A stretch of 64,000 bases of DNA from a candidate division Kazan bacterium GW2011_GWA1_50_15 (GCA_001029795.1 CP011216.1:499580-563579); one strand, 5' to 3'; shown: positions 8,046 through 62,052, numbered from the stretch's first letter. Numbers and translations are program-made. The notes: a model not told the origin generated them from the sequence alone.

Positions 8046-8074
8046 TTGACTGGGAGCGAGTTTTTTGCTATAAT
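8046..8074 (+). promoter_or_regulatory. sigma70 promoter TTGACT-17-TATAAT for the L,D-transpeptidase gene
   Basis: Consensus hexamers with exact 17-nt spacing. ATG 8098 lies about 16 nt downstream of the predicted TSS. No SD. Confidence 0.65.
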
Positions 8075-11461: not shown

Positions 11462-11821
11462 TTATTTGACCGCTTGCCGCTGTGAATTGATTTTAATCTG
11501 TGCCAAAATTCGTGCGATTTCGTCACCCTCGCTCACGATCGCTTGCCACCGATCCAATGCAATATAGTTGGAATCTTTTAAAAGCGTTAGCCAGTAAATT
11601 GTCTCCCGGGCCTCCTTCAGGGAAATTGTAATTTTATTAATAAAATCTTTTCGGCTAATCCCGGCATCCGCTTCCTGTAGGTTAGCAGAGACGGAAGTCC
11701 CTGACCTAATCATTTGAGAAACTAGCGAACGATTTATTGTGTCAACCCGAATTGATTTGGCAAGCTCTACAACCGACAATGTAAATTTGTAGCTCCTCAA
11801 ATGAATTGGATGCCGAGACAT
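11462..11821 (-). CDS. Four-helix-bundle protein (23S rRNA intervening-sequence protein / Avd-like family)
   Basis: Family-typical sequence (HPIHLRSYKF...IYWLTLLKD). Local GC is about 40% against about 56% background. AT-rich flanks. Confidence 0.75.
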   Translation of the reverse strand: MSRHPIHLRSYKFTLSVVELAKSIRVDTINRSLVSQMIRSGTSVSANLQEADAGISRKDFINKITISLKEARETIYWLTLLKDSNYIALDRWQAIVSEGDEIARILAQIKINSQRQAVK

Positions 11822-11868
11822 TTGCAGATTTTTTATTTGCCTATTTTGCATTGATTATTGAGCTACGC

Positions 11869-14094
11869 TCAATAATCTTCGCCTTCTTTGAATTCTTCTT
11901 TGGTGCCCTCATCAACATCCACACCGCCGCCGGCGATGGCACCAACTAGATCCTCTTTTTTCATTAACACATCGCGGGGCTTGGCACCTTCACCTGGTCC
12001 GATCACCCCGCGCTCTTCTAAAATATCCAGCAGTCGCGCGGCGCGGGCGTAGCCGATCCGGAATCGCCGTTGTAGGTAAGAGGCTGAAGCCTTGCCGGTT
12101 TTAACCACTAGTTCCATTGCTTCCTCGGCCAGATCATCGTCGCCCCCTTCTTCACCGCCGAACATCCCACCACCCCGCTTGGCATCCTTGATCACTTCTT
12201 CTACATACTGTGGCGCGTCGAGTTCTTTGAGAGCATTGGTAACCGACTTAACTTCCTTGTCGCCCACAAAGGAAGCCTGGATACGTTTGGGTTTGGCGGC
12301 GTCAGATGGCATAAACAACATATCTCCGTTACCAAGCAGTTTATCGGCTCCAACTGTATCTAAAATCGTCCGCGAATCCGTGCCGGAGGTAACGGCAAAC
12401 GCGATTCGGGAGGGGAAGTTAGCTTTGATCAAACCGGTGATAACATCTACGCTCGGCCGTTGGGTGGCCAGCACCAAATGGATACCGACCGCCCGAGACA
12501 TCTGCGCCAAACGGCAGATGTAGGCCTCCACCTCACGGGCCGACACCGCCATCAAGTCGGCCAACTCGTCGATAATCAGCGCGATATAAGGCATCGGGCT
12601 GTCTTTTTCCTGGCGATTGTACTGACTGATCTCGCGCACCTTGGCTTCGGCCATAACTTTGTACCGCCGCTCCATCTCCATCACTAACCACTTTAAGGCG
12701 TTGATGGTTTTATGCGGATCAACGATGACGGGCGAAAGCAAATGGGGGATATCGTTGTAAGCGGTGAACTCGACCCGCTTGGGGTCAACTAGAATGAGAC
12801 GCAGGTCAGCCGGGGAGTTCTGGTATAAAAGGGATACCAAAAGATCGTTTAGAAAAACGCTCTTACCCGCGCCCGTCGCCCCAGCGATTAAGAGGTGCGG
12901 CATCCGAAGTAGGTCGGTCGCTACCGGCACACCAGCTACGTCCCGGCCTAGCGGGATGCGCAGAGGCGATTTAACTACATGGAACTCCTCCGACTCCATC
13001 ACCTCGCGCAAACGAACCAGCGCGGTCTTTTTATTGGGCACCTCGATCCCGACTAGCGACCGGCCGGGGATGGGCGCCTCGATCCGGATGGGATGGGCGG
13101 CTAGAGCTAAGGCCAGGTCATTACTTAAGGCCGAGATGCGTGAAAGCTTTACCCCGGCGGCCGGCTTTAAAGTGTACTGGGTAACGGTCGGACCGACGTT
13201 CACCTCATTCATCTCGACAGCGATACCGAAATCGTCCAACGTCTCCTGGATGATACCCACATTCCCCGAGATGTTCCCGCTATCAACTTTGGTCACCACA
13301 TCACTCAACAGTTCCAGCGAAGGTGGGGTCCAGTCGCCAGTTGGTTTGAACTGCGGAACGAAGTCGGTGTCTTTTTTGACCGGAGCCCGGCGAACCAACG
13401 GACCGCGAGGCTTAGCCCCAGCCTCTTCAGCCTCGTCGCCCTCCTCTTCGCCCGCTTCCTGTCCATTAGCAAAATCGTTGTTGATGCGGATGTCCGGCAG
13501 AGTTGGCAAGGCCGGGAGAGATAGTTTGGTCCGCAAATACAATTCGCGCAGGGGCTGGCCGAAGGCGAACAAGAGCGAGACCGCAAAGGCGACTGAGAGA
13601 ATCAGGAAGGCCGCCCAGAAGTCGACTATATTAATCAGAAATCGGCTGACAAAAAATCCCAGGTATCCGCCGCCGTCGCCCAGCTGAGCCAGTTCCAGAC
13701 TGATATCCGAGCCGGTAAACACATGCATTAATCCGGACAGTGAAACAACAAATAGGGCCAGGCCGATGGCGTTGGCTAATTTAAATTTGTAGCGCACGGG
13801 GAAAAACATCGCCACGCCTGCACCGGCCAAGAGCAGGGGAATAAAGAAACTGACCCAGCCGAAACCCAGCCGCAAGGTGGTATAGAATATGCGGCCCATA
13901 TCTCCAGCCCCACCCAGAATCGCTAGCAGAGTGAACAGCCCGACTCCCACTAGGAGGATGGCGGCCATTTCGCGGACTACGGCCGGATCGAGCTCTAGAT
14001 CAAAATTCAACCCCTCCGCCCATTTGGAGGTCTGGTAAGAGCGGTAGCGATACCGCCGGCCATTGCTAGTTTTCCTTCTTCTGCGCCGTGCCAT
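11869..14094 (-). CDS. ftsK: DNA translocase FtsK/SpoIIIE
   Basis: N-terminal TM helices, Walker A GATGAGKS, FtsK gamma winged-helix C-terminus. ATG 14094 (MARRRRRK) is preferred over TTG 14112. Confidence 0.93.
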   Translation of the reverse strand: MARRRRRKTSNGRRYRYRSYQTSKWAEGLNFDLELDPAVVREMAAILLVGVGLFTLLAILGGAGDMGRIFYTTLRLGFGWVSFFIPLLLAGAGVAMFFPVRYKFKLANAIGLALFVVSLSGLMHVFTGSDISLELAQLGDGGGYLGFFVSRFLINIVDFWAAFLILSVAFAVSLLFAFGQPLRELYLRTKLSLPALPTLPDIRINNDFANGQEAGEEEGDEAEEAGAKPRGPLVRRAPVKKDTDFVPQFKPTGDWTPPSLELLSDVVTKVDSGNISGNVGIIQETLDDFGIAVEMNEVNVGPTVTQYTLKPAAGVKLSRISALSNDLALALAAHPIRIEAPIPGRSLVGIEVPNKKTALVRLREVMESEEFHVVKSPLRIPLGRDVAGVPVATDLLRMPHLLIAGATGAGKSVFLNDLLVSLLYQNSPADLRLILVDPKRVEFTAYNDIPHLLSPVIVDPHKTINALKWLVMEMERRYKVMAEAKVREISQYNRQEKDSPMPYIALIIDELADLMAVSAREVEAYICRLAQMSRAVGIHLVLATQRPSVDVITGLIKANFPSRIAFAVTSGTDSRTILDTVGADKLLGNGDMLFMPSDAAKPKRIQASFVGDKEVKSVTNALKELDAPQYVEEVIKDAKRGGGMFGGEEGGDDDLAEEAMELVVKTGKASASYLQRRFRIGYARAARLLDILEERGVIGPGEGAKPRDVLMKKEDLVGAIAGGGVDVDEGTKEEFKEGEDY

Positions 14095-14176
14095 AATAGG
14101 TGTACAGAGCAATTATATCATAGGTGATTTATACCTATTGAGGGACGGAAAACATGCTCTGGAAGCCACAAATCCC

Positions 14177-14205
14177 TTGACTTCCTGACCCTGTTGTGCT
14201 AGATT
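14177..14205 (+). promoter_or_regulatory. Putative sigma70 promoter TTGACT-17-TAGATT, with an about 130-nt 5' UTR, for the secreted-protein operon
   Basis: Hexamers with 17-nt spacer. Downstream UTR contains the gggcc/ggccc hairpin and AAGGAGG SD at 14324-14330. Confidence 0.45.
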
Positions 14206-14339
14206 GGAGGTGCTTTGGGGGGACCTTGAAATATAGGACTCTCCAAACTTACTGTGGATCTTAACCCAAGCAGTGACGCCGCTTGGGGGATGGTCAGATA
14301 CCGGGGCCCCACAAGGCCCTAGCCAAAGGAGGATTTGCA

Positions 14340-15455
14340 ATGCGTCAAAAAAGTCCGCTATACGGCTGGGGCCTGGCCCTGGTCGCATTTGCTGTATTTG
14401 CGCTGTTCGCTCTGTTCACGGGGGAAGCGTACGGCGCTACTGTCCGCGAGGTTTCGGCCTCGGTATCCACGTCGGGTGTCCAAGCATTATGGACTACCGA
14501 CGAGAACTACGATGCCCCTGAAGGGGCAGTCGTAGTTAAGATTACCGGTTCAGTCGAGCCGCACTCGAGCTGGCCAGAAGGAACTTCTAGTGCCGGCACC
14601 GTTCAAGACGGCGGCGTTGTTTTTCCGGAGTGGAAACTCCAGGGGGCGACAACCATCACTGTCCAAGGAGGTTGGCTCCAACGATTCAAGACATACCGGA
14701 AGAAAGAATTCCAGTGGTATGACTTGAAAGGGGTAATCGCCCTGGTAGATTTCGCTACTGACGGCCTGCCAGGGAGCAAGCACCATACCTCCTCGGAAGA
14801 TAAACAAACTTCCTTGGAGTTAATGGGCCGAGAACGCGGGATTGTTGTCCTCACTCAAGACCATTGGGTACTCCCTTTCAATGTGGATGCCTACGGGCCT
14901 CCACTGCAGGAGGGGACCTTCTACCTAGTGGTCGCGCCGGCTACTCCCGAGGAGCCAACGCCCCCTTTCGAGGGAGATGGCCTTGGTACCCCACCCCTTG
15001 TTGGATGGACACCTCCAGACCCATTCGGGGACGGGCGGCCCGTCGTGGCCGCCTACCTGACCGGGAGAATTCAGGGTGGTAAGTTGTTTAGCGCCGACCA
15101 AGAAGTCTACCTTAAGCCGCTGAGGCAAGAGATAAGTTCGTTCTGGGTCAGCGAGGGGATCTGCAACCGGTCAGTAAATGGTGACTGGGACGTAAACCCC
15201 GCCTCGATGACGACGAATAAGGCACTGCGAATAACTGCTGGACGGTATCAACTCGGGTACCAACCTCTGTCTGGCGAGGAATCTTTGCCGATAGCTATCG
15301 GCATTGGTATCTCAACTCGTCATGCATTAGTTGTGGACCCGGGCGATCAAGCCCCTCTGATTTATTTGAATCAGGAGGCCGACGATGCAGACATAACTGA
15401 GTGGTTCGTCGTCACTTGGCGCAACGGTCACTGGACATGGCGGGAGGTGCGATGA
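14340..15455 (+). CDS. Secreted/exported hypothetical protein (371 aa) with N-terminal signal peptide
   Basis: AAGGAGG SD 7 nt upstream of the ATG. Signal peptide ...FTGEAYG|A. No family recognised. Confidence 0.7.
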   Translation: MRQKSPLYGWGLALVAFAVFALFALFTGEAYGATVREVSASVSTSGVQALWTTDENYDAPEGAVVVKITGSVEPHSSWPEGTSSAGTVQDGGVVFPEWKLQGATTITVQGGWLQRFKTYRKKEFQWYDLKGVIALVDFATDGLPGSKHHTSSEDKQTSLELMGRERGIVVLTQDHWVLPFNVDAYGPPLQEGTFYLVVAPATPEEPTPPFEGDGLGTPPLVGWTPPDPFGDGRPVVAAYLTGRIQGGKLFSADQEVYLKPLRQEISSFWVSEGICNRSVNGDWDVNPASMTTNKALRITAGRYQLGYQPLSGEESLPIAIGIGISTRHALVVDPGDQAPLIYLNQEADDADITEWFVVTWRNGHWTWREVR

Positions 15456-16270
15456 TGGCCGATGTTGACAACACAACACCAGCAGGATTAACACCGGCCA
15501 CCGACATGCCAGCGGCGGAAGAGGCTCGCACCACAGTGCCTGAGCTAGCAACCGATGTCGATAACGAACAGCGCCCGGCGGGCGATGAAATCGTCAGGAG
15601 ACTGCAACTGCATCTGCGACGGCGCGGTCCACGGGTACTGATGTTCATCGGATCGGTTCTATTCTGGCTCGTCGTGACTAGCGCACTACCCCTTTGGGGA
15701 TGGATTCCCGTCTGGTTGTGGTGCATAGCTTCTGCTGCCATAATGAGCATCGGATTTTTCGCTCTGGTCTATGACTACCCGCGTGTCTCTTGGATTATTG
15801 TCAGCCGTATCACTTTGGGGATACTGGCACTCGGTTTGATCAATCTTGCGATCGGACAGATACACACCCGAGAGGTCACCGCCAGCGGTGTATATGTAGC
15901 CCAAGACGGTCGGCTCCAGGTAGTCGTGCCCTCTGGGCAGGTGGTCACGGTACCGCTTTCGCGCGTTTACGCGAGAGCGGATGCCCAGCCACTGGGCTAC
16001 CCGCTCGAACAGAATCCAGCGGAAATCAGAACCCGCTGGGACGGTATCCAAAGGAAAGTGGCTGTGGTGATCTTTTACCACGCTACCGAAGAAAAGGCAG
16101 ACGTCCGGGCCCAGTGGGCCCGGCCGTGGGTCAGAGAGAAACCCATCTCCGATCTGTTCCATGACGACTTGGAGCAAATCGTCGCGAGCTACCGCGACGA
16201 TGCCGACGCCTTCGTGGTCCGAGTTAAAGAGGAGTTGGGAGTAACGGTTCACCCCCCAGCCGACAAGTAA
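15451..16270 (+). CDS. Hypothetical membrane protein (about 273 aa; acidic cytoplasmic N-tail, 3 TM helices, extracytoplasmic C-domain)
   Basis: ATGA overlap with the upstream stop indicates translational coupling. Start taken at MMADVDN. Confidence 0.65.
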
Positions 16271-16294
16271 AGCACTTGCACCTTGTAGTAGTCT

Positions 16295-16336
16295 CAACCG
16301 GCCTTGTGGTCCTATCCCACAAGCGCCGGTTTTTTA
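16295..16336 (+). terminator. Rho-independent terminator
   Basis: ccggccttgtgg/ccacaagcgccgg stem followed by TTTTTTATT. Confidence 0.75.
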
Positions 16337-16368
16337 TTACTCCTAAAATTGAGAAGTTGGCTCTGATA

Positions 16369-16397
16369 TTGACTAATTTATCTATTTGTGGTATAAT
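16369..16397 (+). promoter_or_regulatory. Strong sigma70 promoter TTGACT-17-TGgTATAAT. The -10 ends 6 nt before ATG 16404, implying a leaderless mRNA
   Basis: Consensus -35, extended -10 and 17-nt spacer. ATG at 16404. Confidence 0.7.
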
Positions 16398-16403
16398 AAA
16401 CTG

Positions 16404-17657
16404 ATGCGTAATTCGTTTGAAAGACCACCAGGAGAGCAGCCAAATGACCCCTCGGGCAAGGAGGGCGAGTCTTCACCTCGTCTGAACTGGGGCAGTAATA
16501 GCGAAGATACCGCCAAGCATCTGGCTAAAAGCGTGGCTGGGTGGGCCCAACGTCAATTAGAAAATCTTCGGGCTGAGGAGCAGCGCCACGAGCAGGAACA
16601 CCAAAATCGATCTGAAGTTAAGAAGCAGGTTCGCGAGACCGAACAAGCCGGACAAGAGAGGCAGTCCAAGATCCGAACAGCCAAGCAGGAGTACCAGAAA
16701 CGGCTCAAAGAGGAGTCGGCCAAATTCCATGAGACCCCCCAGGAGTACCGGGCACAAGAACAAGAGATCAAGGGCATGTCTCAAGCAGAGCTTGATGCCC
16801 ACACTGAAAAATACAATCGGAATCGGGAGGCCTTAAATGACATCTATGACCAATACTACCGCCCCAAAGAGGTTAAGAATGCCGATAAATCAAAACAGCT
16901 GGTAACTGACATCATCCCTAAATACCAGCGGATCCTTGACAAGGCTTTTGCGGGGGACTTCCATCGGGTGATGAACGATGAAAACTATGCCAAAGAGCTC
17001 GCCCAACGCTTGCAGGTGCGGGAGTTTCTATATGCCGAGCAGGTGGGGAAGGTCCGTGAAGCGGAGTTGGGCAAGTCCCAGGTGAAAGTAGTCATTCAAG
17101 AAGGAGAGAAGCCCGACTGGAAGCTCGAGACCGAGGAGGCTAAGATCAAACATTTCCAAAAGCGCCGCGAGGAGACGATTAAGGCTTTAGCCAGTGCTCC
17201 AAAAGGAGAGTTCGCCAACCGGCTCAACGAGACTATGGCCGACTTGAACCGATTATTCGATGACAAAGGAGAACCAAAGGTGATCGACAGCCCAGATAAG
17301 CTGCAAGACCTGGCCCGTAAAGTCAACGAATTGATTGGGATTAACAATCTACTGGAGGAGCATCTGAATGCATCTCTAGAGCAAACCATAGGGGCTATTC
17401 AGAAAATAGGCGGCGAGTGGGCCGGGCCAGAAAACAGAGGGGTATTACGAGATCTGCTGACTGAATTTGTTGAAGACAAGACATCAGCCGAGCGTCTGAT
17501 CGGGACAATTGCCACTTTGGGCGGATTAACAGACGAAGTGTCACAGAATCGCCTAAAAAGTGTTTTATCGGCACACCTAATGACAGTCGCCGATCTGACG
17601 AATGAACTAAGAAAACGACCAGGGACCGGGCCGGCGGCCAATCAGGCAGCGGCTTAA
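16404..17657 (+). CDS. Highly charged (E/K/Q/R-rich) predicted coiled-coil protein, no TM, unknown function
   Basis: 417 aa from ATG 16404. The ORF track's ATG 16386 lies inside the promoter. Stop overlaps the rnj stop (TTAA). Confidence 0.7.
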   Translation: MRNSFERPPGEQPNDPSGKEGESSPRLNWGSNSEDTAKHLAKSVAGWAQRQLENLRAEEQRHEQEHQNRSEVKKQVRETEQAGQERQSKIRTAKQEYQKRLKEESAKFHETPQEYRAQEQEIKGMSQAELDAHTEKYNRNREALNDIYDQYYRPKEVKNADKSKQLVTDIIPKYQRILDKAFAGDFHRVMNDENYAKELAQRLQVREFLYAEQVGKVREAELGKSQVKVVIQEGEKPDWKLETEEAKIKHFQKRREETIKALASAPKGEFANRLNETMADLNRLFDDKGEPKVIDSPDKLQDLARKVNELIGINNLLEEHLNASLEQTIGAIQKIGGEWAGPENRGVLRDLLTEFVEDKTSAERLIGTIATLGGLTDEVSQNRLKSVLSAHLMTVADLTNELRKRPGTGPAANQAAA

Positions 17658-19441
17658 ACCTCGATGATGACCGGCAGGACCAAGGGGCGCCGTTCGATCT
17701 CGCGGAAGATGAACTCCCCGATATGCTCGCGAAGTTTGGTCTTAATATTGGTCCAGTCATCAGGAACGGACTGAACGTGTTGGGCGAAGATATCTTTGAC
17801 CTTTTGGCGAGTCTTGTTGATCAGATCTCCCTTCTCACGCATATAGACGAACCCGCGCGAGATGATGTCGGGGCTGCCGATAATCTTGCCTTTTTTATCC
17901 ACCAAGGCGATCAGAACGATCATCCCTTCTTTGGCCATAGCCTGACGGTCGCGCAGAACGACCTCTTTGACATCGCCCACACCCAAACCATCGACCATAA
18001 TGCCGCCAACGGGGACCTTTTGATTGCTCTTGCGCCCTTGGCCCTGACGGAACTCGATCACATCACCATCCTCCATAATAATGATGTTAGCTGGTTTGAT
18101 CCCGGTCTCTTCAGCCAACTCTTTGTGCGAGACTAACATGTGATATTCACCATGAACAGGGATGAACCAGCGGGGCTTGACCATAGTCAGCATCTGTTTC
18201 ATCTCTTCTCGGTAGGCGTGACCGGTCACATGGATCTGCATCTTTTTATCAAAGATAACGTTGGCGCCTTGGCGGTAGAGGTTGTTGATAACCGAGTTAA
18301 TGGAGCGCTCGTTGCCGGGGATAGCTGAGGAGGAGATGACGACGGTGTCGCCGCTGTGGATTTTCACCTGTTTATGTTCGCCGAATGCCATCCGCTGCAG
18401 AGCTGAGCCCTCCTGACCTTGGCTGCCGGTACTCAAAATAACTAGTTGACTGTCTTTGTATTTTTTAATACTGCGCAGATCAACGATCAAGCCCTTTGGG
18501 GTTTTGATATAGCCGGCCTTGCTAGCTACATCAAAATACTTCAACATACTTCTTCCGGCGATAGCGACCTTGCGCCGGTATTTAACGGCGGCGGCGATCA
18601 CATGCTGCATCCGGTCGATGCGGGAGGCGAACGAGGCCACGATCAGCCGGCCGGAGGTTTTGGCAAAGATCTCCATAAAGGCATCGGCGATGACCTGCTC
18701 GGACGGTGTTCGGCCTGGGGTGTGAACGTTAGTGCTCTCTGACATCAACAGCAGCACACCCTCTCTCCCAAGTTGTTCGAATTTGGCGTAGTCAGCCTTA
18801 ATCCCGTCCGGCGGTGTGGGGTCGAACTTGAAGTCGCCCGTGTAGATCACTTTGCCTTCGGGTGTGTCCACTACGATCGAGAAGGTGTCGGGGATGCTGT
18901 GGTTGACGCGAACGAACGACACTGTGAACACCCCAAGGCGGATTCGGTCACCGGCTTGGTAGGTATTGACCCGCACGTTCTGGGCATCGGAGAACTCTTC
19001 CAAGTTAACCTTGATCAGCTCGGCAGCCAAACGCGGGGCGTAGACCGGCACGCCCAACCGAGGAACTAAGTGTTGGATAGCCCCAATGTGATCCTCGTGG
19101 CCGTGAGTGACAATAATACCGCGGAGTTTCTTTTGATTACGTTCCAGATAGGTCGGATCGGGGATGACGTAGTCGATACCCAACATTGATTCGTCCGGCA
19201 TCATCATGCCGCAGTCGAGGATGACGATATCGTCGCCATATTCAACAACGATCATATTTTTACCCATCCCGCCAACTCCGCCCAAAGGGATGACTTTAAG
19301 CAGCGAGCTGGTAGACCGGCCGGCCGGCCGGCCGGAAGCCGGGCGATGGACGGGGCGTGGCTGGCGAGAGGCAGCTGGTCTGGGGCGAGTACCCCGACGG
19401 GGGTGCTGACGAGTTGTGGAAGAGTAATGAGTACGAATCAT
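17654..19441 (-). CDS. rnj: Ribonuclease J (metallo-beta-lactamase/beta-CASP)
   Basis: HGHEDHIG motif, beta-CASP and RNase J C-terminal domain. Arg/Pro-rich N-terminal extension of about 55 aa. Confidence 0.93.
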   Translation of the reverse strand: MIRTHYSSTTRQHPRRGTRPRPAASRQPRPVHRPASGRPAGRSTSSLLKVIPLGGVGGMGKNMIVVEYGDDIVILDCGMMMPDESMLGIDYVIPDPTYLERNQKKLRGIIVTHGHEDHIGAIQHLVPRLGVPVYAPRLAAELIKVNLEEFSDAQNVRVNTYQAGDRIRLGVFTVSFVRVNHSIPDTFSIVVDTPEGKVIYTGDFKFDPTPPDGIKADYAKFEQLGREGVLLLMSESTNVHTPGRTPSEQVIADAFMEIFAKTSGRLIVASFASRIDRMQHVIAAAVKYRRKVAIAGRSMLKYFDVASKAGYIKTPKGLIVDLRSIKKYKDSQLVILSTGSQGQEGSALQRMAFGEHKQVKIHSGDTVVISSSAIPGNERSINSVINNLYRQGANVIFDKKMQIHVTGHAYREEMKQMLTMVKPRWFIPVHGEYHMLVSHKELAEETGIKPANIIIMEDGDVIEFRQGQGRKSNQKVPVGGIMVDGLGVGDVKEVVLRDRQAMAKEGMIVLIALVDKKGKIIGSPDIISRGFVYMREKGDLINKTRQKVKDIFAQHVQSVPDDWTNIKTKLREHIGEFIFREIERRPLVLPVIIEV

Positions 19442-53515: not shown

Positions 53516-55156
53516 TCATTCGGCGATAACCCGCCAAAGCTCTTCTAGGGTGGTAATGCCGGCTAGGACCTTGGCAACTCCGTCTTGGGCGAGGGTGGTC
53601 ATCCCTTGGCTTTGGGCAAGAGCCTGAATTTCGTGCGCGGGGGCACTGCTCATGATCTTGACCTTAATCTCAGGGGTGATCTCAAGTAGTTCAAATATGC
53701 CGACGCGGCCCTGATAACCAGTACCGTTGCATTTATCACAAGCCTTGGCGATTGGGAGGGTAGCGGGGATCTGAGCATCGGGCAAGATAGACTTGATCTT
53801 GGCTTGAGCCGCCTCGTCCGGCGCGGCCGAAGCCTTGCAGTTAGGACAGACCTTGCGGACCAATCGTTGAGCGATGATAAGTCTCAACGCATCGGAAAAC
53901 AACTGGGGCTTGGCCCCTAGGTCAATAAGCCGAGGTACGGCGCCAGCTGCATCGTTGGTGTGCAGGGTGGATAACACTAGGTGCCCCGTAAGGGAAGCAT
54001 TCACAGCGATATCGGCGGTCTCGCTGTCACGAATCTCTCCGACTAGGATGACGTCCGGATCTTGGCGGACGATCGCTCGCAGGGCGTTGGCAAAATCGTA
54101 GTGTTCTTCTGGGTTGACCTGAGTTTGAGTCACTCCTTGTAGACGGTACTCGATCGGGTCTTCGACGGTGATGATCTTGGTGGTAGGCGAGTTGATAGTG
54201 TTCAAGACGGCGTAGAGAGTAGTGGTCTTACCAGAGCCAGTGGGGCCGGTGTTGAGAATAAGCCCATTTGGTTCGTGGATCGATCGATCGATCACTTGAC
54301 GGTCGTGAGAACTCAGCCCTAACTCATCTAGACTTACGAATTTGCCTTCCTGGGGGAGCAGGCGCATGACGATCGACTCGCCGTATTGGGTGGGCAGGAT
54401 CGAAACTCGGATATCATACCGGCTCGCGCCAGCAGTAATCGAAAACCGACCGTCCTGCGAACTCTCGGTGATGTTGAGTTTCAGCGCCGCCATCAGCTTG
54501 ATGCGGTCCACTACTGCTCCTTGAGCTGAGGTGGGCAAAGTAGCAATATCCTGCAGCACTCCATCTAACCGATAACGAAGCCGTAAGTCGGTTTGGGTGG
54601 GCTCAATGTGGATGTCGGAAGCCTTCAAACCAGTGGCCCCGGCCAAAATAGTGGTGAGTAGCTCGCTAGTGGAGGTGCTAGTGAGTTTAGCTTGAAATTC
54701 TGTCAGATCATTAAGCTTGGGGATGGTCTGCGGTCCAGAAGTGTCGATAGTGATCTCGTGGGAGTGATCGGCTGCTGGGGCGAAGGTGTCGTATACTCCC
54801 AAGAGATAGCGCATAGATGACTCGGATACCAAAACGGGGTGGAACTGATACTCATCCATAGCCGCCAGGTGCTTTAAAGCAGTGACGGTTGCGGGGTTAT
54901 TGGGATCACTCAGGGCTAGTAAGATCTTGGTCCCAGCTTTCTCAAAAGCGAAGACATGACCAGACTGAACCATATCTCTAGGGACGAGGGCGACTGCGGC
55001 TGGATCGGGTTGGAAGCCAGCTAGATTACGATATTCAAGACCCAATTTATCAGCCTGAATTTTGGTCAGTTCTTCTTCTTTGGCGCGGTGGAGATTTTTA
55101 ACCGCCTGTTCCAACGGGGCTTTGTCGCCATCTGGTTTTGGGGTTGAGTTAACCAT
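53516..55156 (-). CDS. pilB: GspE/PilB family secretion ATPase with N-terminal T2SE_N domain and tetracysteine zinc motif
   Basis: Walker A GPTGSGKTTT, Asp/His boxes, CPNC...CDKC. An N-domain is present, so a VirB11-type ATPase is unlikely. Confidence 0.9.
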   Translation of the reverse strand: MVNSTPKPDGDKAPLEQAVKNLHRAKEEELTKIQADKLGLEYRNLAGFQPDPAAVALVPRDMVQSGHVFAFEKAGTKILLALSDPNNPATVTALKHLAAMDEYQFHPVLVSESSMRYLLGVYDTFAPAADHSHEITIDTSGPQTIPKLNDLTEFQAKLTSTSTSELLTTILAGATGLKASDIHIEPTQTDLRLRYRLDGVLQDIATLPTSAQGAVVDRIKLMAALKLNITESSQDGRFSITAGASRYDIRVSILPTQYGESIVMRLLPQEGKFVSLDELGLSSHDRQVIDRSIHEPNGLILNTGPTGSGKTTTLYAVLNTINSPTTKIITVEDPIEYRLQGVTQTQVNPEEHYDFANALRAIVRQDPDVILVGEIRDSETADIAVNASLTGHLVLSTLHTNDAAGAVPRLIDLGAKPQLFSDALRLIIAQRLVRKVCPNCKASAAPDEAAQAKIKSILPDAQIPATLPIAKACDKCNGTGYQGRVGIFELLEITPEIKVKIMSSAPAHEIQALAQSQGMTTLAQDGVAKVLAGITTLEELWRVIAE

Positions 55157-55158
55157 AT

Positions 55159-56082
55159 TTATTGAGTAACCAGCGGATGGGCCACTACTATCGCTTTATC
55201 GGTGGTGCCTTCGAGAGGGAAGTGTTCTAGCCTGACGCGAGCAATGTTTTCCCATAAGCCCACCTCTTCCACTGTAGCAGAAACCCCAAAGGTCAGAGTG
55301 ACAACCGGGTTACTAGAGTAGACGTCAATTCGGTAATCGCCCATCCAGCCAGCGATCCTCTGGGGCTGGCCGCTTTGCCCATAGATGATATAGTAGCTGC
55401 CCTGAACGGGTTTCAGCCCGTTCGGGAAGAGATCATCCACGATAAATGTAGCCAGTTTGGCTGGCAGAGAACCAAAGTCAGCGCCAGGCGGGAGGATGAC
55501 CCCTACACTAACATCGACCTTGAAGTCGACTTGCGTCTGGTGGTCGGCGTAGGCTTCGACCGAATGGACATAACTGCCGTCTGGAGCCAATCTAACCTGT
55601 TTGGTGAGGCCATAAACGTATTTGAGGCCCTCGGGTTTTTCTTCGGTCGGGATGGCAGGGGTGAGGATACCGCCGCTATTGGGGTCGGTCGGATCAGTGC
55701 CGAGAATCACCTCTATACCGTCAGCTACCCCGTCGCCGTCAGTGTCTGGGTTAGTGGGGTCGGTGCCGGTATCCTCCGGGTTAGTGGGGTCGAATACACC
55801 GGTACCCGTCTCGGTGCTGTTGGGAAGCCCGTCGTTGTCATGGTCACCTGGGCCAGTAACTTTAGGGCTAATAAAGTCAGTCGTCTCGCCTGGGATATCG
55901 GGGATATCGTGGGCGGGGTTGTTAAGTTCGGCGTCCCGCTCCGCCAAGGTGCGAGTACCCCAACGCTCTTCGATACCGGAGGTCTCTCTAATAAAAGTAG
56001 CCCCGGCCGAGGCAATGATAAGAATGCCGACAGCGGCGGCACCCACAGTAATGGCCAAACCAGTCCCGGCCCCAATACGCAT
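55159..56082 (-). CDS. Membrane-anchored protein with thrombospondin type-3-like calcium-binding repeats (DxDxDG) and an unknown C-terminal domain
   Basis: N-terminal TM. DHDNDGLPN / DTDGDGVADGIE repeats. Confidence 0.6.
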   Translation of the reverse strand: MRIGAGTGLAITVGAAAVGILIIASAGATFIRETSGIEERWGTRTLAERDAELNNPAHDIPDIPGETTDFISPKVTGPGDHDNDGLPNSTETGTGVFDPTNPEDTGTDPTNPDTDGDGVADGIEVILGTDPTDPNSGGILTPAIPTEEKPEGLKYVYGLTKQVRLAPDGSYVHSVEAYADHQTQVDFKVDVSVGVILPPGADFGSLPAKLATFIVDDLFPNGLKPVQGSYYIIYGQSGQPQRIAGWMGDYRIDVYSSNPVVTLTFGVSATVEEVGLWENIARVRLEHFPLEGTTDKAIVVAHPLVTQ

Positions 56083-56085
56083 GAC

Positions 56086-57876
56086 TTAGCCTCCTGTTAG
56101 ATTACGCAGTTCAGCGAGCTGGGCTGGGTCAGAGGTCACGATCTTGTCTTCCACGTAGCTAGCAACTACCTTGATAGCGGCATGGCTGGTGCCGGCAAAA
56201 AATAGACCCTCCCCAACCTCGGCTTCTAGGAGCAGGAACTTCTCGCCTTGGGTCAGGTTGAAGGTTTCAGTGACCACATCAATGGAGGCTGGTGACTGGC
56301 GGAAGAGAAGCTGTAGGGAAGAGTTGGCCACCACAGCTTTACCGTACTTGGAACCGAGAAAGTCCTCGACATCCTGGGTGATGGTGGTGAGACCCAGGTA
56401 ATACTTACGGGCCCGCTTGGCGATCGAGTACAGAAATTTGGCGGAGTCCTCGTACTGCATCAAGATCCAGGCCTCGTCGATTACAAGGATCCGCTTCTTT
56501 ACATCGAAACGGATCTTGTTCCAAATGTAGTTGAGAACGATGTACATAGCGATGGGGCGCAGAACGTCTTCCAGGTCGCGGATGTTAAAGACCATAAGGC
56601 CAGTGTCTAATTCAAAGTTGGTGGGCTGGTTGAAAATACCGGCGAAGGTCCCCCGGGTGTATTTGCTAAGCCGCTGTGATAGGCTCTCGGCGCCCTGCAT
56701 ATTGTCCAAGACATTTTGCAGATCCTCCATGGTCGGCATGGGGTTGGCGTGGGTTTTAACGTCATCGGTGATATCTTTGAGAGCGTAAGTTTCGCGGATG
56801 GCTTTATCCATCAATGCGTCCTCTTCGGGAGTCAAAGTCCCCACGAGCAGGTTCATCAGCCCCAAGAGTGTAACAATGGCTGAGCGCAAAACCTTTTCGC
56901 CCTCGGCGTTGGGTCCCAATTTCGGTAGATCAAATGGGTTAATCCGCTTGTCGCTATTAAGGGAGATAGAGATGTAGCTGCCGCCGGCGGCCTTGGCCAG
57001 CGCTTCATACTCGTTTTCCGGGTCGATGACGATGGCGTCAACTCCGAACATGGCGCTGCGCAGGATCTCTAGTTTGACGGCGTAGGATTTACCACCTCCA
57101 GACTTGGAGAAGACGGCCATATTGGCGTTTTCTAGGTCAAAGCGGTCAAATAGGATGAGCGAGTTGTTGTGACGGTTGATGCCGTACAAGACACCCTTGC
57201 CGGTGGTGAGGTCCACCGAGGTGAAGGGGAAGGTGGTAGCTAAGCTTGAGGTGGTCATGTTGCGGACGATGTCCAGTTCGTCCAGCCCCAGCGGCAGCGC
57301 CGAATTGAAGCCCTGCTCCATCTGTAGGAGCGCATGTTTAGTGTAGACCAACTGCCCACCGAGCGTGGTTTCGATGTGCTGGGTGATGGACTCCAGCTCC
57401 TGCTCAGTCTTAGCGTAGATAGTAAAATAGAGAGCGTAGTGAAAGAACTTTTCGATACCGCGCTGCAGGCGGTCGCGGAGCTCCTCAGCATCTTGGTAAG
57501 ATATCTCCAGCTCAGGGTCGCGGATGGCTCCTTTTTCTTGATTGATACGCAAACTTGCCTCCATCTCGGTTACCTTGCGGCGCAAAGTTTTCATAATGGC
57601 GGAGCTGTCTACAGGCATGATATGCATGGAGATGTCTAAATTGACATCGTAGTTGATGACTGGAGACAGCCAGTTGGTCTCGATGTATTGCGGGTAGGTC
57701 AGGACGAACAGCGACCGAACAAAACGGCCGTTGAGCATAAGATGATCGTTGCTGATCTCCAAAGCGGCGGGGGCGACTAGGTCGCGGACGGAGACTAGGC
57801 CGGCCTCGAACTGTTCCACGGCTTTGCGAGCCGAGGCTTCATCAGAGTTAACTGATTTTCTTTTAAACCAGGCCAT
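56086..57876 (-). CDS. virB4: VirB4/TraC/PrgJ family type IV secretion ATPase (C-terminal about 600 aa portion)
   Basis: Walker A SKSGGGKSY, Walker B ILVIDEAW and VirB4 N-domain-like region. Confidence 0.88.
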   Translation of the reverse strand: MAWFKRKSVNSDEASARKAVEQFEAGLVSVRDLVAPAALEISNDHLMLNGRFVRSLFVLTYPQYIETNWLSPVINYDVNLDISMHIMPVDSSAIMKTLRRKVTEMEASLRINQEKGAIRDPELEISYQDAEELRDRLQRGIEKFFHYALYFTIYAKTEQELESITQHIETTLGGQLVYTKHALLQMEQGFNSALPLGLDELDIVRNMTTSSLATTFPFTSVDLTTGKGVLYGINRHNNSLILFDRFDLENANMAVFSKSGGGKSYAVKLEILRSAMFGVDAIVIDPENEYEALAKAAGGSYISISLNSDKRINPFDLPKLGPNAEGEKVLRSAIVTLLGLMNLLVGTLTPEEDALMDKAIRETYALKDITDDVKTHANPMPTMEDLQNVLDNMQGAESLSQRLSKYTRGTFAGIFNQPTNFELDTGLMVFNIRDLEDVLRPIAMYIVLNYIWNKIRFDVKKRILVIDEAWILMQYEDSAKFLYSIAKRARKYYLGLTTITQDVEDFLGSKYGKAVVANSSLQLLFRQSPASIDVVTETFNLTQGEKFLLLEAEVGEGLFFAGTSHAAIKVVASYVEDKIVTSDPAQLAELRNLTGG

Positions 57877-57878
57877 AA

Positions 57879-58565
57879 TTATTGCCCCTGTTGGGCTTCT
57901 TTAATATTCTGGATAACTGATGCGTCTACGTTGCTGACCGAAAAAAGTTTCTGCCGGCGAGCAGTGTCGGGGTTGTAGGTTGAATAGAACAATTCGATCA
58001 GTTCCTGGGTGTTGAGCTGAACATTATGCAAGCCCAACCCGGCTAGGCCGGATGAAACTAAACTGGTCCGCTCTAGTAACTTGGTTTTGATCTCCGCGAA
58101 TCGGCCCCCAGTGGTGATCGGGCCGGACTTCTTGCCGAACAGTTTGCCCAAGAACCCGCCGGAGGGAGCCTCGAACCCAGTGTCATAAGGGATCACGATA
58201 TAAAAAGTTTTGCTCATAATGTTGGCCACGCCGATCAGCTCGCGGACAAAGCCGGTGTATTCGGCGGTCTGAGTGCGCAAGAGTTCATTGGTCTGTTCCC
58301 TGGCCAAGGTATCAAGCTGGGCCAGATATTTATCTAGATCGAGGGTGCGGGACTGTACGACGATCTGGATGGGGAATCCCAAACCGTTCAGGAATTCCTG
58401 GTACTGCCCCAAAAGTGCTTCCTGTTCATCGCGAGATTTAAGATTAAAGTTAATTGCGTTGGCCATCAGGACGGTGCGAAAACCGCCGGTCTTTAAGACA
58501 ACGATCCCATCACGGACTTCTTTGATGGGTAGGAACTTTTGTGTACTGTTGGACTTTTTGGCCAT
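57879..58565 (-). CDS. Hypothetical soluble protein (228 aa) resembling the extreme N-terminal segment of VirB4/TraC proteins; possible split-off VirB4 N-domain
   Basis: DGIVVLKTGGFRTVLMANAINFNLKSRDEQEALLGQYQEFLNGLGFPIQIVVQSR pattern. Stop TAA then TT then ATG of virB4. Confidence 0.45.
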   Translation of the reverse strand: MAKKSNSTQKFLPIKEVRDGIVVLKTGGFRTVLMANAINFNLKSRDEQEALLGQYQEFLNGLGFPIQIVVQSRTLDLDKYLAQLDTLAREQTNELLRTQTAEYTGFVRELIGVANIMSKTFYIVIPYDTGFEAPSGGFLGKLFGKKSGPITTGGRFAEIKTKLLERTSLVSSGLAGLGLHNVQLNTQELIELFYSTYNPDTARRQKLFSVSNVDASVIQNIKEAQQGQ

Positions 58566-58567
58566 GG

Positions 58568-59116
58568 TTAGTCGGTGTCAGTTAGAATATCTTCAACATC
58601 CAAACCGGCCTCGCTAACCGAGGAGCGGTTGGGGTTGAGGTTGTTGATCTGCGTAGTAACGGCATCCTGATCTTCTGCTCTCATTGTACCACCCGTATCT
58701 AAGAGGTGAGACAGTTTTTCAAGCTGAGTTTTAAGTTCGCCACCGCTTTGACGTTCGCGGACTTCGCTTTTAGTATCTTTGATGTCGCTGGCTTGGACTT
58801 TGATCGCCTGAACTAGTTGACGCGGCTCTTTGTGCCAGACAGCCTGCTTAGGCGACGTCCAAAAATGCCATAACTGCAATGCGAACAGGCCGAACGGACG
58901 ACCATTGATCTGAATAAAGGCTAATGACACGCTTAAGGCCACCGCTACTAAACTGATCAGTACGAACTCGGTGAAATAGAGGTACTTCCGAGTGTAGTAT
59001 TGATAGGCGATAAAGACGAGTGCGGCTCCGCCGAGAACGTAGAGGAACTGTTTCAGGGTCAGCGGACCGATCAAACGGTCTTCGCGGGTAACATCTTGTG
59101 GAATTTTGGCGGCCAT
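58568..59116 (-). CDS. PrgI family protein (VirB3-like small T4SS membrane protein)
   Basis: MAAKIPQDVTREDRLIGPLTLKQFLYVLGGAALVF N-terminal signature plus 2 TM helices. Confidence 0.75.
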   Translation of the reverse strand: MAAKIPQDVTREDRLIGPLTLKQFLYVLGGAALVFIAYQYYTRKYLYFTEFVLISLVAVALSVSLAFIQINGRPFGLFALQLWHFWTSPKQAVWHKEPRQLVQAIKVQASDIKDTKSEVRERQSGGELKTQLEKLSHLLDTGGTMRAEDQDAVTTQINNLNPNRSSVSEAGLDVEDILTDTD

Positions 59117-59118
59117 AA

Positions 59119-62052
59119 TTACGGTTTAATATTGTTGGTAGCAGAAGCACCCCGAGCCAAGTGGTCCAGGGCGTCAGCTAGGCTTAACTCGCCAGCTTGG
59201 GTTGGGTCTTGCAAGTCTTTCTTGCCAACTCCAAAGTTGGTCAAGTTAGTCCGCTTAGCCCAGTCAGCGACTTTGTTACCTAGACCCAGGGACTCAACTT
59301 TGATCTTAGTTTCGTCGCCCCCGGCGGCTGTCCCTGCCCGGCGCAGTTCGTTCATCAGGCCAAGTGATTCAGTCCGAACCTCCTGCTGGGCGGCTGTCCC
59401 GGTAACTGTAGCGCCAGCGGTAGTAACAAATCCCGATTTAACCACCTCGGTTAACGTGTTCTCATAAGACGGGTGCCCTGAAGCTGACTGGAGAATATCA
59501 ACAGTTAACGTATCGATGGTGCGCTGTTGGGTGGCTTGCTGTTGGGCGAGAGCAGCCGCTTGGCGTTTAGCCGCATCGGCACCAATAGTCTTGGTAGCAT
59601 ATTCTGATAGTTGTGCGGCTAGAGCTGGGTTAGCCATCCCCTCGGCGATCGGTGCGCCTTGGGTGCGGATAGTAGCTAGCGGAATACCGTTCCTGTGGAC
59701 TAGAAGCTTAGCAGCGGCATCAGCTGAACCTTGGAAGTTAGCAAAGCTTAACAGGCCCTCGATATCATGTACTTTTTGGGCCTCATCTAGATTGGGGTTG
59801 GCGGCGATACGCTCGATCTGTCCATAGACATTTTTATTTGTTCCCGAGAAAGCGCTCAGAGCGGCTATCCCACTGCTTCCCAGGTTGGTGACAGAGTCAC
59901 GGAAGTCGGCGTCGTTGGCGATAGCATCGAGTACTTTGGGGTCAGCTGAACGGATAGCTAGGGCGGCTTGCTGCCCGGCGCCGCCTAATCGGTTAAGACT
60001 GTTAGCTAGGTTACCTAACTCTGCACTCAGCGAAGCGATATTGGTTTGACTGGCGGCTAACCGGGCGTTGGTTTGAGCAATCTCGGTTTCAGCTGCAGTT
60101 AATTGGCGCTGGGAGTGTAGGGTAGTCCGCTTGGCTTCGAGGTCGGCGGCTCTCTTTTCATCTTTGGCTGAAATGGCAAACGGTTTTTTGGGCATGTATT
60201 GATAACCGGCACCGGTAGTTAGGTTGCTAACCAGGTCGTAGAAGTCGGAGTCTTCTAAAAGGGGATTCAGCATTTTGCGCCAGTTATACTTGTCCACCCC
60301 AGTCCCTGCTTGTTTGAGGGCCCGCGTCACTTTACGGCTAAGCTCTCGGGCAGTATCAGTAGAGACACGGCCAGTGGCAACCCGTTCAGCCTCAGCTCGT
60401 TTGCGCACATCAGCGATGGATGCCTCCATGGCTTCGGGCCCGAGGGCAATACTGTCTTCTAGCTCAGAGTCATCCTTGGCGATACTGTTTTTGATAGCGT
60501 TAGCCCAGTTGCGGCTGGATGCCAAACCAGGGTTTTGTTTATCGAATTGTAGTTCTAGGGCAGACTTTTGAGCAACATCTAAGTCGTCAATTGATGTTAC
60601 GCCGTACCGCTTGTAGCCTTCAATGGCCATGAATTCATCTAGCTTTCGTTGGCGGTTAGATAAGATGACGTTGGCCTGCGGGAGAAGCTGCTCATTGACG
60701 GCTCTACCCGTAGCAACCTTATTGGCTTTCTTGGCTGCTTCCAGCTGCGCATCTAATTTAGCGCCGGCAATCTCGGCTTGGCGCAATGGCCCACCCAACT
60801 TTGAACCCTTGAGCTTTTCAACGCCAAGCTGCCAGTATTTACCGATAGTGCTAGACGCGCTTTTGCCGGCCAGTTGGAACGGTTTGTCGATCATGTCGCC
60901 CATCCATTTAGTAGCGGCGCTTAACGGCACGTCCAGCATCTTGGGCGTGTTGGCAGCAGCGATCATCACGGCTACCATCACAATGATGTACATAATCATC
61001 CCGGCATCCAGTCCAGCCGCGGCGCTGTTGTCACCAAATTTAAACAGAGCGACTAGTTGCTCGGAGACTGAACTGCCAGGAGCATTGGGGCGGAGTAGAT
61101 TAGCTACTCCGAGCAGCAGAAAGGAGATCGGGAGAACTAAGATCCATTTGATTAAGTTGGTCCACCACCGGCTAGCATAGCTGGATAGGTCCTTGTGCGG
61201 CAGTAAGCCGAGTGCGAAGTAGAAGGGAGCGAAGATAGTCAGCAGGATGATCTGGATGGCCCGTTCGGTCATGACGGCCACGATCCGGAAGAGGGCATAG
61301 GTGGTCACTATAGCGATAATAAGGATGACTAGCGATAGACCAATGTAGCCGTAGATGCTCATTTTTGGGTCGAAGATGACCCCACCAGAAAAGAGGGTGA
61401 GCAAGTCTTGGTAGAGGATGTCGATCTGGGATGGTTGGAAGCCAAACACTGTGCTAGCTGAGTTTTTCAGGGCGTCACCCGCTTCAATAAATACCCAAAC
61501 TAACTGGTAACTTAAATTAGCCAACACTACTGCGGTGACCAGGCCGGTGATAGCCTTCTTGAAGTTGTACCCGCCCGAGCGGGTGATGATCATAATAGCG
61601 AAGATCGCTAAGGCCAAGAAGAAGAGTACATTGGCGGCGGAGCGCATCGCCCCCCACGCCTGCAGAACGGCAGGGGAACCCAGTACACCATTCTGGCCCT
61701 TAAGAATAACCTCGTTCAGGATCCAAAGCAGAAGAGCGTTGATCATCCCCAAAAGCGCCTCGAGACCGTAAACCAGAGCACCAACGATGGCTTTAAGGGT
61801 GGACTCGGCTAGCCAACTTACAGCCTGTAGACCGCCAGAGGGGTCCAACAGACGTTTTAACCAATCCGGGATGAATAGGGCAGAGCTACTGGTGTATTGG
61901 CCCGGGATAAGCTGAGCGTGGGCGATCAAAGGTACACCAACTAGTACAGCGATGGCTAACAGGGAGACAATCAACATCAACCGCCCGCGCGGTTTATCTA
62001 GAAATCGTTTAATTAGCTGGGACCAATTTTTCATTTTTATTTTGGTGGCCAA
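59119..62052 (-). CDS. Large VirB6/TrbL-like polytopic T4SS membrane protein (977 aa) with a roughly 550-aa Ala/Gln-rich predicted coiled-coil C-terminal domain
   Basis: Signal peptide plus about 8 TM helices in the first 420 aa. Long low-complexity C-terminal domain. First gene of the operon. Confidence 0.6.
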   Translation of the reverse strand: MATKIKMKNWSQLIKRFLDKPRGRLMLIVSLLAIAVLVGVPLIAHAQLIPGQYTSSSALFIPDWLKRLLDPSGGLQAVSWLAESTLKAIVGALVYGLEALLGMINALLLWILNEVILKGQNGVLGSPAVLQAWGAMRSAANVLFFLALAIFAIMIITRSGGYNFKKAITGLVTAVVLANLSYQLVWVFIEAGDALKNSASTVFGFQPSQIDILYQDLLTLFSGGVIFDPKMSIYGYIGLSLVILIIAIVTTYALFRIVAVMTERAIQIILLTIFAPFYFALGLLPHKDLSSYASRWWTNLIKWILVLPISFLLLGVANLLRPNAPGSSVSEQLVALFKFGDNSAAAGLDAGMIMYIIVMVAVMIAAANTPKMLDVPLSAATKWMGDMIDKPFQLAGKSASSTIGKYWQLGVEKLKGSKLGGPLRQAEIAGAKLDAQLEAAKKANKVATGRAVNEQLLPQANVILSNRQRKLDEFMAIEGYKRYGVTSIDDLDVAQKSALELQFDKQNPGLASSRNWANAIKNSIAKDDSELEDSIALGPEAMEASIADVRKRAEAERVATGRVSTDTARELSRKVTRALKQAGTGVDKYNWRKMLNPLLEDSDFYDLVSNLTTGAGYQYMPKKPFAISAKDEKRAADLEAKRTTLHSQRQLTAAETEIAQTNARLAASQTNIASLSAELGNLANSLNRLGGAGQQAALAIRSADPKVLDAIANDADFRDSVTNLGSSGIAALSAFSGTNKNVYGQIERIAANPNLDEAQKVHDIEGLLSFANFQGSADAAAKLLVHRNGIPLATIRTQGAPIAEGMANPALAAQLSEYATKTIGADAAKRQAAALAQQQATQQRTIDTLTVDILQSASGHPSYENTLTEVVKSGFVTTAGATVTGTAAQQEVRTESLGLMNELRRAGTAAGGDETKIKVESLGLGNKVADWAKRTNLTNFGVGKKDLQDPTQAGELSLADALDHLARGASATNNIKP

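Follow-up and report, generated by a model that had tools for sequence, protein, structure and literature searches.

What are three genes of hypothetical function doing on the opposite strand between ftsK and rnj, the gene for RNase J, in a bacterium whose genome measures only about 600 kb? The locus lies within a 64,000-nucleotide stretch of DNA (hereafter "the window") that an exact-sequence look-up assigned to the candidate division Kazan bacterium GW2011_GWA1_50_15, a member of the Candidate Phyla Radiation (CPR/Patescibacteria). The three genes, here called A, B and C (GenBank AKM84974, AKM84975 and AKM84976, each annotated "hypothetical"), are read from the + strand, opposite to both of their neighbours. 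Our analysis points to a clade-specific variable island of the replacement type, situated between two co-oriented core genes in one subclade of the uncultured, ultra-small Kazan bacteria and perhaps involved in the interface with host or phage, and we give this reading a probability of roughly 0.5.

To place the locus among its relatives we used RNase J as a synteny anchor in GTDB genomes and JGI metagenomes, and then searched the resulting loci (designated L001 and so on) with the window proteins. In loci L007, L008, L009, L086, L088 and L089, which belong to more distant Kazan-like genomes, rnj and ftsK are co-oriented and lie some 60–250 bp apart, and in L092 they are separated by about 700 bp. 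At the same point an opposite-strand insert of 1.8–6.4 kb is found in the window and in L001, L002/L111, L082, L003, L087, L004 and L006. Together with L005, where it is only partially covered, the island occurs in 9 distinct genomes, always between rnj and ftsK, and its holders have an RNase J at least 70% identical to that of the window. The initial annotation had proposed to look for conservation in related genomes, and island genes indeed occur there. The island-bearing genomes group as a single clade when RNase J is used for the tree; nested inside this clade is L084, which has a 180-bp gap at this position and an RNase J 92% identical to that of L003, a placement that marks L084 as a case of secondary loss of the island.

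The content of the island differs from genome to genome. Next to the A-B-C set of the window, L001 carries A (60% identity) and a C-type gene of 642 amino acids (aa); L002 and L111 an A-type gene of 349 aa and a C-type gene of about 800 aa; L082 an A-type gene, a C-type gene of 767 aa, and proteins of 112 and 630 aa; and L006 a 291-aa protein with multiple transmembrane (TM) spans and a C-type gene of about 700 aa. The island of L003 codes for a 153-aa TM-anchored protein and a 751-aa charged protein, that of L004 for proteins of 650, 783 and 114 aa, and that of L005 for at least a charged open reading frame (ORF; a partial C-type) beside rnj, where the contig ends. L087 carries a C-type gene of 576 aa alone. 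Since a large gene for a charged helical protein stands next to rnj throughout the islands, the C-type gene is their constant, ancestral core, with the A-type and B-type envelope genes as accessory cassettes that were added, swapped or lost. The three genes had initially been described as one module; this is not borne out, given that C stands alone in L087, an A-type gene is present in 4 distinct genomes (window, L001, L002 and L082), and B was found only in this species, with a relative of one of its domains in L003. A, B and C are therefore not an obligate module, and co-occur loosely as two transcription units. A second module was also seen in two of the islands (L082, 3127-5360, and L004, 1808-4507, both on the − strand), consisting of a large acidic protein (630 and 783 aa, respectively) with a Gly-rich hydrophobic hairpin, and a protein of about 112 aa; the proteins of this second module had no match in Pfam.

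The flanks of the island are well conserved, being 75–92% identical overall across the island genomes. Between the window and L001/L002, FtsK is 84–90% and RNase J 85–89% identical, as compared to 60% (L001) and 35% (L002) for A, and to at most 28% over 83–222 aa for C, where C could be aligned at all. The contrast is sharpest between L003 and L005, whose RNase J proteins are 91% identical and whose C-position proteins align over only 32 aa; for the L003 protein, no profile similarity to the C family was detected. The island genes, all of them, thus evolve far faster than their flanks or are replaced outright. Many assemblies of the species carry virtually the same three proteins, and A, B and C are therefore real genes, intact and maintained.

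The island is not a mobile element or a prophage, because it has no integrase and no flanking repeats, neither the window nor any of 18 related loci contains a tRNA or tmRNA gene, no PHROG family matched the island proteins below an E-value of 0.04, and no viral relatives of the island were found in IMG/VR. Searches of Pfam, NCBIfam, PADLOC and PHROGs with A, B, C and 15 proteins from the islands of relatives returned no significant family, including no PADLOC match at E≤0.1 for 10 island proteins. The weak matches of C to SMC and V-ATPase subunit E, both of coiled-coil type, are chance-level noise, and an SMC or canonical coiled-coil identity for C was rejected (TIGR02169, 22.7 bits against a cut-off of 729). 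Queries against all PDB sequences, by phmmer or with profiles, covered the three single proteins, the A and C families, the pair of B domains and the protease-like domain described below; they likewise gave chance-level matches only. In a word-indexed search of 5.8 billion clusters, A retrieved a single relative cluster (P0018, 60% identity), and B and C retrieved only themselves, with no homologue of B at E≤1e-3; when 1.84 billion representatives were scanned by HMMER with a profile of A, only the same cluster and a 70-aa fragment were recovered. These exhaustive library, PDB and billion-scale searches uphold the earlier statement that none of the three proteins belongs to a recognised family. 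In the literature we found no mention of the island's accession or locus tags, and the only paper found on "hypervariation" in CPR bacteria (PMC6851277) deals with a repeat-driven hypervariable gene, a different phenomenon.

The features of the locus, together with others in the window that are discussed below, are listed in Table 1.

Table 1. Positions of the island genes, their expression signals and other window features (counted from the first nucleotide of the window).
Feature	Position	Strand	Description
Third full-consensus promoter	8046-8074	+	TTGACT-17-TGcTATAAT
Four-helix-bundle gene	11462-11851	-	"23S rRNA intervening sequence protein" family (PF05635); directly 3' of ftsK
ftsK	11869-14112	-	Pfam FtsK_SpoIIIE and related domains; probable start at ATG 14094
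Conserved GCTCTGGAAGC box	14156-14166	+	5' of the P1 −35
Promoter P1	14177-14205	+	TTGACT-17-TAGATT; 9/12 consensus match, TG before the −10; predicted to drive the A-B operon
Predicted 5' leader of A	14212-14339	+	about 128 nucleotides; includes the GGGGGACCTTGAAA box, the insertion and the Shine-Dalgarno sequence
GGGGGACCTTGAAA box	14218-14231	+	14 nucleotides
Leader insertion	14268-14313	+	about 45 nucleotides, GC-rich
Shine-Dalgarno sequence of A	14326-14332	+	AAGGAGG
Gene A	14340-15455	+	371 aa, Sec signal peptide, acidic
A/B overlap	15452-15455	+	ATGA
Gene B	15452-16270	+	272 aa (or 271 aa); three TM spans, about aa 62-135
Terminator of the A-B unit	16296-16337	+	rho-independent; hairpin 16296-16331 plus T-run; dG -28.1 kcal/mol, z -5.98
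Shorter box copy	16360-16365	+	GCTCTG, before P2
Promoter P2	16369-16397	+	TTGACT-17-TGgTATAAT; 11/12 match; −10 ends 6 nucleotides before the C ATG
Gene C	16404-17657	+	417 aa, 34% K/R/D/E, predicted all-alpha, no hydrophobic span
C core motif	16827-16973	+	L..IYD.YYRP...LDKAF..DF, aa 142-190
C terminal Ala-Ala	17649-17654	+
rnj (RNase J)	17654-19441	-	Pfam RNase_J domains; convergent with C; synteny anchor
PilB-like ATPase	53516-55156	-	type IV secretion system-like cluster
VirB4/TraC-like ATPase	56086-57876	-	type IV secretion system-like cluster

Examination of the intergenic signals points to two independent transcription units, one comprising P1, A, B and a terminator, and the other P2 and C. 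The P1 hexamers and their position are kept in L001, L002 and L082, as is the AAGGAGGA Shine-Dalgarno (SD) sequence of A, which in the window lies 7 nucleotides (nt) before the start codon of A. Indeed, relatives retain P1 with its SD, the terminator and P2 even though the coding sequence has strongly diverged, and this contrast makes it probable that both promoters are genuine and strong. The P1, P2, SD and terminator that the initial annotation had read at this locus are all present. It had also described the leader of A as structured and about 130 nt long; the length holds and the structure does not, as folding of the leader was not significant against shuffled sequences (z -1.45), an Rfam scan of positions 13900-17900 gave no match, and a possible hairpin in the GGGGGACCTTGAAA box yielded a consensus fold with no compensatory changes or covariation. 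This box, just past the predicted start of transcription from P1, is invariant across the relatives (window, L001, L002 and L082). The insertion in the leader is missing from L001 and L002 and can form two small hairpins; it has no further copy within the window and is not a dispersed repeat.

A second conserved element lies just 5' of the −35 at both island promoters, with the consensus GCTCTGG(A/G)A. Its GCTCTGG part is invariant in the window, L001 and L002, and the box was also found ahead of A-type or C-type promoters in L004, L006, L082 and L087. It could be the site of a regulator or an UP-like element. A similar GGCTCT...TTGACTAAT sequence is carried by the promoter of a gene for a 977-aa protein elsewhere in the window (62113, − strand). 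At the other end of the unit, the terminator, which a simple scanner overlooked because of a bulge in its hairpin, has a homologous hairpin after A in L001; B therefore entered or left the unit between the A stop codon and the terminator.

Gene A codes for an exported protein with a classical Sec signal peptide, as had been proposed: an MRQK n-region is followed by a hydrophobic core (residues 5-33), with cleavage likely at AYG|AT, and L001, L002 and L082 have kept the n-, h- and c-regions and the AYG|A site. The remainder is laid out as an N-terminal domain (about aa 33-200), a Pro-rich linker (about 200-232) and a C-terminal domain with a Trp-rich strand pair at its end; the protein is nearly Cys-free, rich in G/V/L/A/T/P and has a net charge of -15. 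An AlphaFold2 model built from a two-sequence alignment was beta-rich, with a pLDDT of 40. The identity to the A-type proteins of L002 and L082 (35-42%) is confined to the N-terminal half; in L002 the C-terminal domain is replaced except for the Trp-rich terminal strand pair, so that the C-terminal half has been swapped among close relatives. We found no SLH, CWB, LPXTG or similar anchoring or lattice domain in A, either in Pfam and NCBIfam or, for the LPXTG motif, by reading the sequence.

The start of B overlaps the end of A in the ATGA noted initially, and a GGAGG within the end of A precedes that ATG by 4 nt and a second ATG, at 15455, by 7 nt; B is thus translationally coupled to A. The three TM spans of the earlier description stand, and its acidic tail is corrected to the N-terminus. 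The basic RRLQLHLRRRGPR segment before the first TM span, read by the positive-inside rule, would place this acidic N-terminal tail in the cytoplasm and a C-terminal domain of 135 aa on the outside of the cell. Over 79 aa, that domain matches the TM-anchored 153-aa protein of L003 at 28% identity. B is absent from L001.

In the second unit, the promoter stands out more than anything else. Only 3 sites of the form TTGACN-17-TAnAAT occur in the 64 kb, P2 among them. The P2 region is nearly identical in the window, L001, L002 and L082 (TTGACTAATTT...TATTTGTGGTATAAT), with a TTGACA-17-TAGAAT variant in L003, and in all five sequences the ATG follows the −10 by exactly 6 nt. Relatives of C start with ATGATG, of which the second ATG holds the +7 position. 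As the ATG of C sits at the expected start of transcription, the mRNA of C is predicted to be leaderless, beginning at the ATG itself. In L004 and L006 the same type of promoter precedes leaders of 22-35 nt that have no SD. A −10 with at least 5/6 matches lies 5-8 nt before the start of 6/50 window genes (2973, 5668, 16404, an internal ATG of polA, 49227 on the − strand, and 49289), and an SD-like motif precedes just 17/50. A leaderless C would therefore be normal for this organism, its full-consensus promoter being the exceptional part. Two side observations concern these promoters: five tandem copies of a heptamer (CACTATT) lie just 5' of the C-type promoter in L002 (around 14060-14100, − strand), and the third full-consensus promoter of Table 1 lies 23 nt 5' of a gene for an L,D-transpeptidase (YkuD).

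The protein encoded by C had been described as an extremely charged coiled-coil protein with neither signal nor TM span. Its length, charge and lack of a hydrophobic span agree with this; the coiled coil is not borne out, since the helix is too poor in hydrophobic residues for a classical one. An AlphaFold2 model computed from the single sequence was all-helical (pLDDT 52.8), with a disordered, acidic N-terminus (residues 1-32) and one long helix (33-108) for which pLDDT reached 72-83, the rest of the model being low. Large hydrophobic residues make up 12-14% of this helix, and residues 55-105 are 12% large hydrophobic and 47% charged. The helix thus has more of the character of a charged single helix than of a heptad coiled coil.

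The conserved part of C is a core of about aa 130-417, shared by the window, L001, L087, L002/L111, L082 and L006 and marked by a motif whose family form is L..IYD.(Y/F)YRP ... LDKAF..DF.RAV. Over this core the window protein aligns with those of L087 and L001, and its unique charged helix takes the place of their N-terminal region of about 300 aa. We rejected the C-position proteins of L003 and L004 as demonstrable members of the C family (hhalign probabilities 0.07% and 11%). Neither these nor that of L005 are demonstrably homologous to C; yet all three share its flanking signatures, namely a consensus promoter immediately 5' and an acidic Glu/Pro N-terminus, and the Ala-Ala tail occurs across six genomes. 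The acidic N-termini of C-type proteins have Glu and Pro at positions 5-9, in a pattern M(M)..E(N)P that recurs across otherwise unalignable proteins. At the opposite end, the tails QAAA, KQAA, VQAA, LRAA, RGAA and FSAA are found in the six genomes (window, L001, L003, L005, L006 and L087), written in differing synonymous codons; C is the sole ORF ending in Ala-Ala among 61 long ORFs of the window. Where a C-type gene adjoins rnj, the stop codons of both genes have 3 nt in common, within a shared TTAA (CTAG in L003). The Ala-Ala end resembles that of the SsrA tag, which suggests, by analogy, that proteolysis may set the level of C.

Longer C-type proteins (L002, L082, L006 and possibly the 650-aa protein of L004) also have an N-terminal papain-like pattern, Q-x5-C ... 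H ... D. The L082 protein matched Peptidase_C39_2 over profile positions 6-141 of 143, although below the threshold (E 0.006, 17.6 bits, cut-off 24). A peptidase fold was not confirmed by PDB profile searches with the protease-like region, and the C protein of the window lacks this region and had no Peptidase_C39_2 match in a Pfam scan.

How should this locus be interpreted? The combination of a fixed position, content that is replaced or diverges fast, and envelope proteins matches replacement-type islands and therefore favours a role at the interface with host or phage. Under this interpretation the island would encode functions under diversifying selection where the cell meets host or phages; A and the outward domain of B would sit on the cell surface, and C would be made constitutively and abundantly in the cytoplasm. 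Several points weigh against it. No structural match supports any function of A, B or C, and with AlphaFold models of such low confidence the domain assignments are soft. C has no export signal, so that a surface role rests on A and B, which are dispensable in L087 and L004. Between species the sequences have diverged too far for a test of diversifying selection, and within the species the three proteins differ by 0-1 substitutions in a nearly clonal population, which offers no population-level signal of selection. Finally, the fast divergence may stem not from diversifying selection but from a relaxed constraint on a helical protein of low complexity.

Among other explanations, we considered the island as a hotspot for anti-phage defence or superinfection exclusion, with C-type genes as single-gene cytoplasmic defences, some of them carrying a papain-like protease, and with A and B blocking adsorption or injection. 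The replacement of content at a fixed core-gene locus among close relatives, the strong constitutive promoter, and the Q-x5-C ... H ... D pattern with its sub-threshold peptidase match would all fit such a role. We nevertheless regard it as unlikely, since PADLOC returned nothing for ten island proteins, the protease-like region is missing from the C of the window and its fold found no confirmation in the PDB, and the common promoter, N-terminus, core motif and C-terminus point to a single diverging lineage and not to unrelated cargo. It is rather doubtful, too, that A is a major S-layer-like surface protein with B as its membrane anchor and C as an unrelated neighbour. The export and composition of A, its long leader with a conserved 5' box, an SD of a strength seen in a minority of genes, a strong terminator, and the swapped C-terminal half are traits typical of genes for S-layer and other abundant surface proteins; however, Pfam detects no SLH or other wall-anchoring domain, A is missing from the islands of L087, L004, L006 and L003, P1 matches the consensus at only 9/12 positions, and the structure model of A is unusable.

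Two further proposals concern C itself, and we consider both quite improbable. CPR bacteria are generally considered episymbionts, and C-type proteins might be effectors secreted into a host cell through a VirB4-type apparatus or type IV pili, with the acidic Glu/Pro N-terminus as the signal. Their extreme sequence turnover, the recurrence of the N-terminal pattern in proteins that otherwise cannot be aligned, the protease-like domain of relatives, and a VirB4-like cluster in the window whose first gene has a similar GGCTCT...TTGACTAAT-17-TATAAT promoter speak in favour of this. Yet C has no signal peptide or known secretion signal, the secretion-like genes are at least 36 kb away with a linkage that is not conserved, and the terminal Ala-Ala points to cytoplasmic proteolysis and not to export; an A-rich, unstructured 5' coding sequence suited to leaderless or SD-less initiation could alone account for N-termini rich in E/N/K/Q/P. 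Alternatively, C might be a cytoplasmic scaffold, associated with division or the nucleoid (through ftsK) or of degradosome type (through rnj and pnp), that drifts since charged helices tolerate change. The all-helical model with its long charged helix and disordered N-terminus, the ftsK, rnj and pnp neighbours, and weak SMC and V-ATPase subunit E matches typical of such proteins would be expected of a scaffold, but most Kazan-like lineages do not have the gene and L084 lost it with no replacement at the locus, C-type proteins vary between 417 and about 800 aa and have entire regions exchanged, the gene is convergent to rnj and divergent from ftsK and so not co-transcribed with either, and the SMC score is far from its cut-off. 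Just as improbable, in our view, is the bolder idea that the C-type proteins form an unrecognised, fast-diversifying effector or defence family of one CPR lineage that acts on host or phages, equipped with a conserved leaderless cassette, a Glu/Pro motif, a swappable interior, an Ala-Ala degron, and A and B as surface partners.

The wider neighbourhood of the A-B-C locus contains recA, DUF520, UDG, pnp, a DHH protein gene and holA. The ftsK gene is divergent from A and has a −10 of its own, TGaTATAAT, 17 nt 5' of its ATG, with no SD and with a conserved promoter region. On the other side, the RNase J ORF spans 595 aa, the first 45 or so of which form a basic extension enriched in Pro, Arg and Ser; L002, L003, L082 and L087 have similar extensions. 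The GenBank entry (AKM84977, 537 aa) begins within a conserved LKVIPLGGVGGMGKNM motif, which indicates that its start was probably called too short.

The initial annotation had further pointed to a type IV secretion system (T4SS)-like apparatus in the window, of which C might be a cargo. Such a set does exist at 53516-62052 on the − strand, and resembles components of a Gram-positive-type T4SS and pilus. It comprises two ATPases, one PilB-like (T2SSE) and one VirB4/TraC-like, a TSP3-repeat protein with a TM span at its N-terminus, and proteins of 228 aa, 182 aa (two TM spans) and 977 aa, the last of them polytopic; a TTGACT-17-TGcTATAAT promoter heads the cluster. A link to C is not supported, as the two have only a similar promoter in common over the distance given above, and T4SS genes were found in none of the C-type islands of relatives. 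The cargo or effector role, like the cytoskeletal one that was also suggested for C, is speculative.

CPR genomes are tiny, yet a function has been assigned to only about half of the genes in them. What was annotated as three hypothetical proteins can now be described as a defined island, with an insertion point between rnj and ftsK, a C-type core family, conserved expression signals and an Ala-Ala tail. It is a new example of a familiar genomic feature, built from A, B and C families that have no known relatives. A locus that is kept, has a promoter among the strongest of its region and is rewritten between close relatives is a good place to look for genes of the symbiont-host or phage-host relation in an uncultured lineage. 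The functional pay-off is speculative, and such orphan islands are common in CPR genomes; should the C family turn out to be a new effector or defence family, the case would be considerably more interesting. Routine leaderless or SD-less initiation also matters for gene calling, as the seemingly shortened RNase J next door illustrates.

Individual features of C can each be set against a known counterpart. Leaderless mRNAs are common in Actinobacteria and Deinococcus, and C resembles them in the distance of its −10 from the ATG, in a predicted start at the A of the ATG, in the absence of an SD and in a spacing kept in five sequences; it differs in that its start is a prediction, and the arrangement is not peculiar to C, being shown by 6/50 window genes. 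SsrA-tag-like degrons (…LAA-COOH) are recognised by ClpXP, FtsH and Tsp, and the C-type tails of six genomes share the terminal Ala-Ala despite synonymous codon differences; unlike in the degron, however, the residue before Ala-Ala is not Leu, the preceding positions being Q, K, V, L, R, G or S. The longer C-type proteins have the residue pattern of Peptidase_C39_2 (PF13529), and that of L082 spans nearly the whole model, but the score stays at 17.6 as against 24 bits, the PDB lends no support and the window protein lacks the region. Residues 55-105 of C share with ER/K-type single alpha-helices their high charge, scarcity of large hydrophobic residues and prediction as one long helix; they differ in having opposite charges in just 7/47 i/i+4 pairs, in a segment unique to the window C and not present in its relatives.

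The island as a whole is best compared with the replacement-type flexible islands, or hypervariable regions, of streamlined bacteria such as Pelagibacter and Prochlorococcus, which elsewhere encode features exposed to phages or partners. Like these, it occupies a fixed spot between core genes, holds divergent or non-homologous content in close relatives, lacks mobility genes and encodes envelope proteins. In contrast to them, it is tiny (1-4 genes within its 1.8-6.4 kb), and its constant gene codes for a charged, helical, cytoplasmic-looking protein and not for a glycosyltransferase or another function of surface biosynthesis. A further difference is that in the Kazan island the promoter and the protein termini are kept, and it is the interior that turns over.

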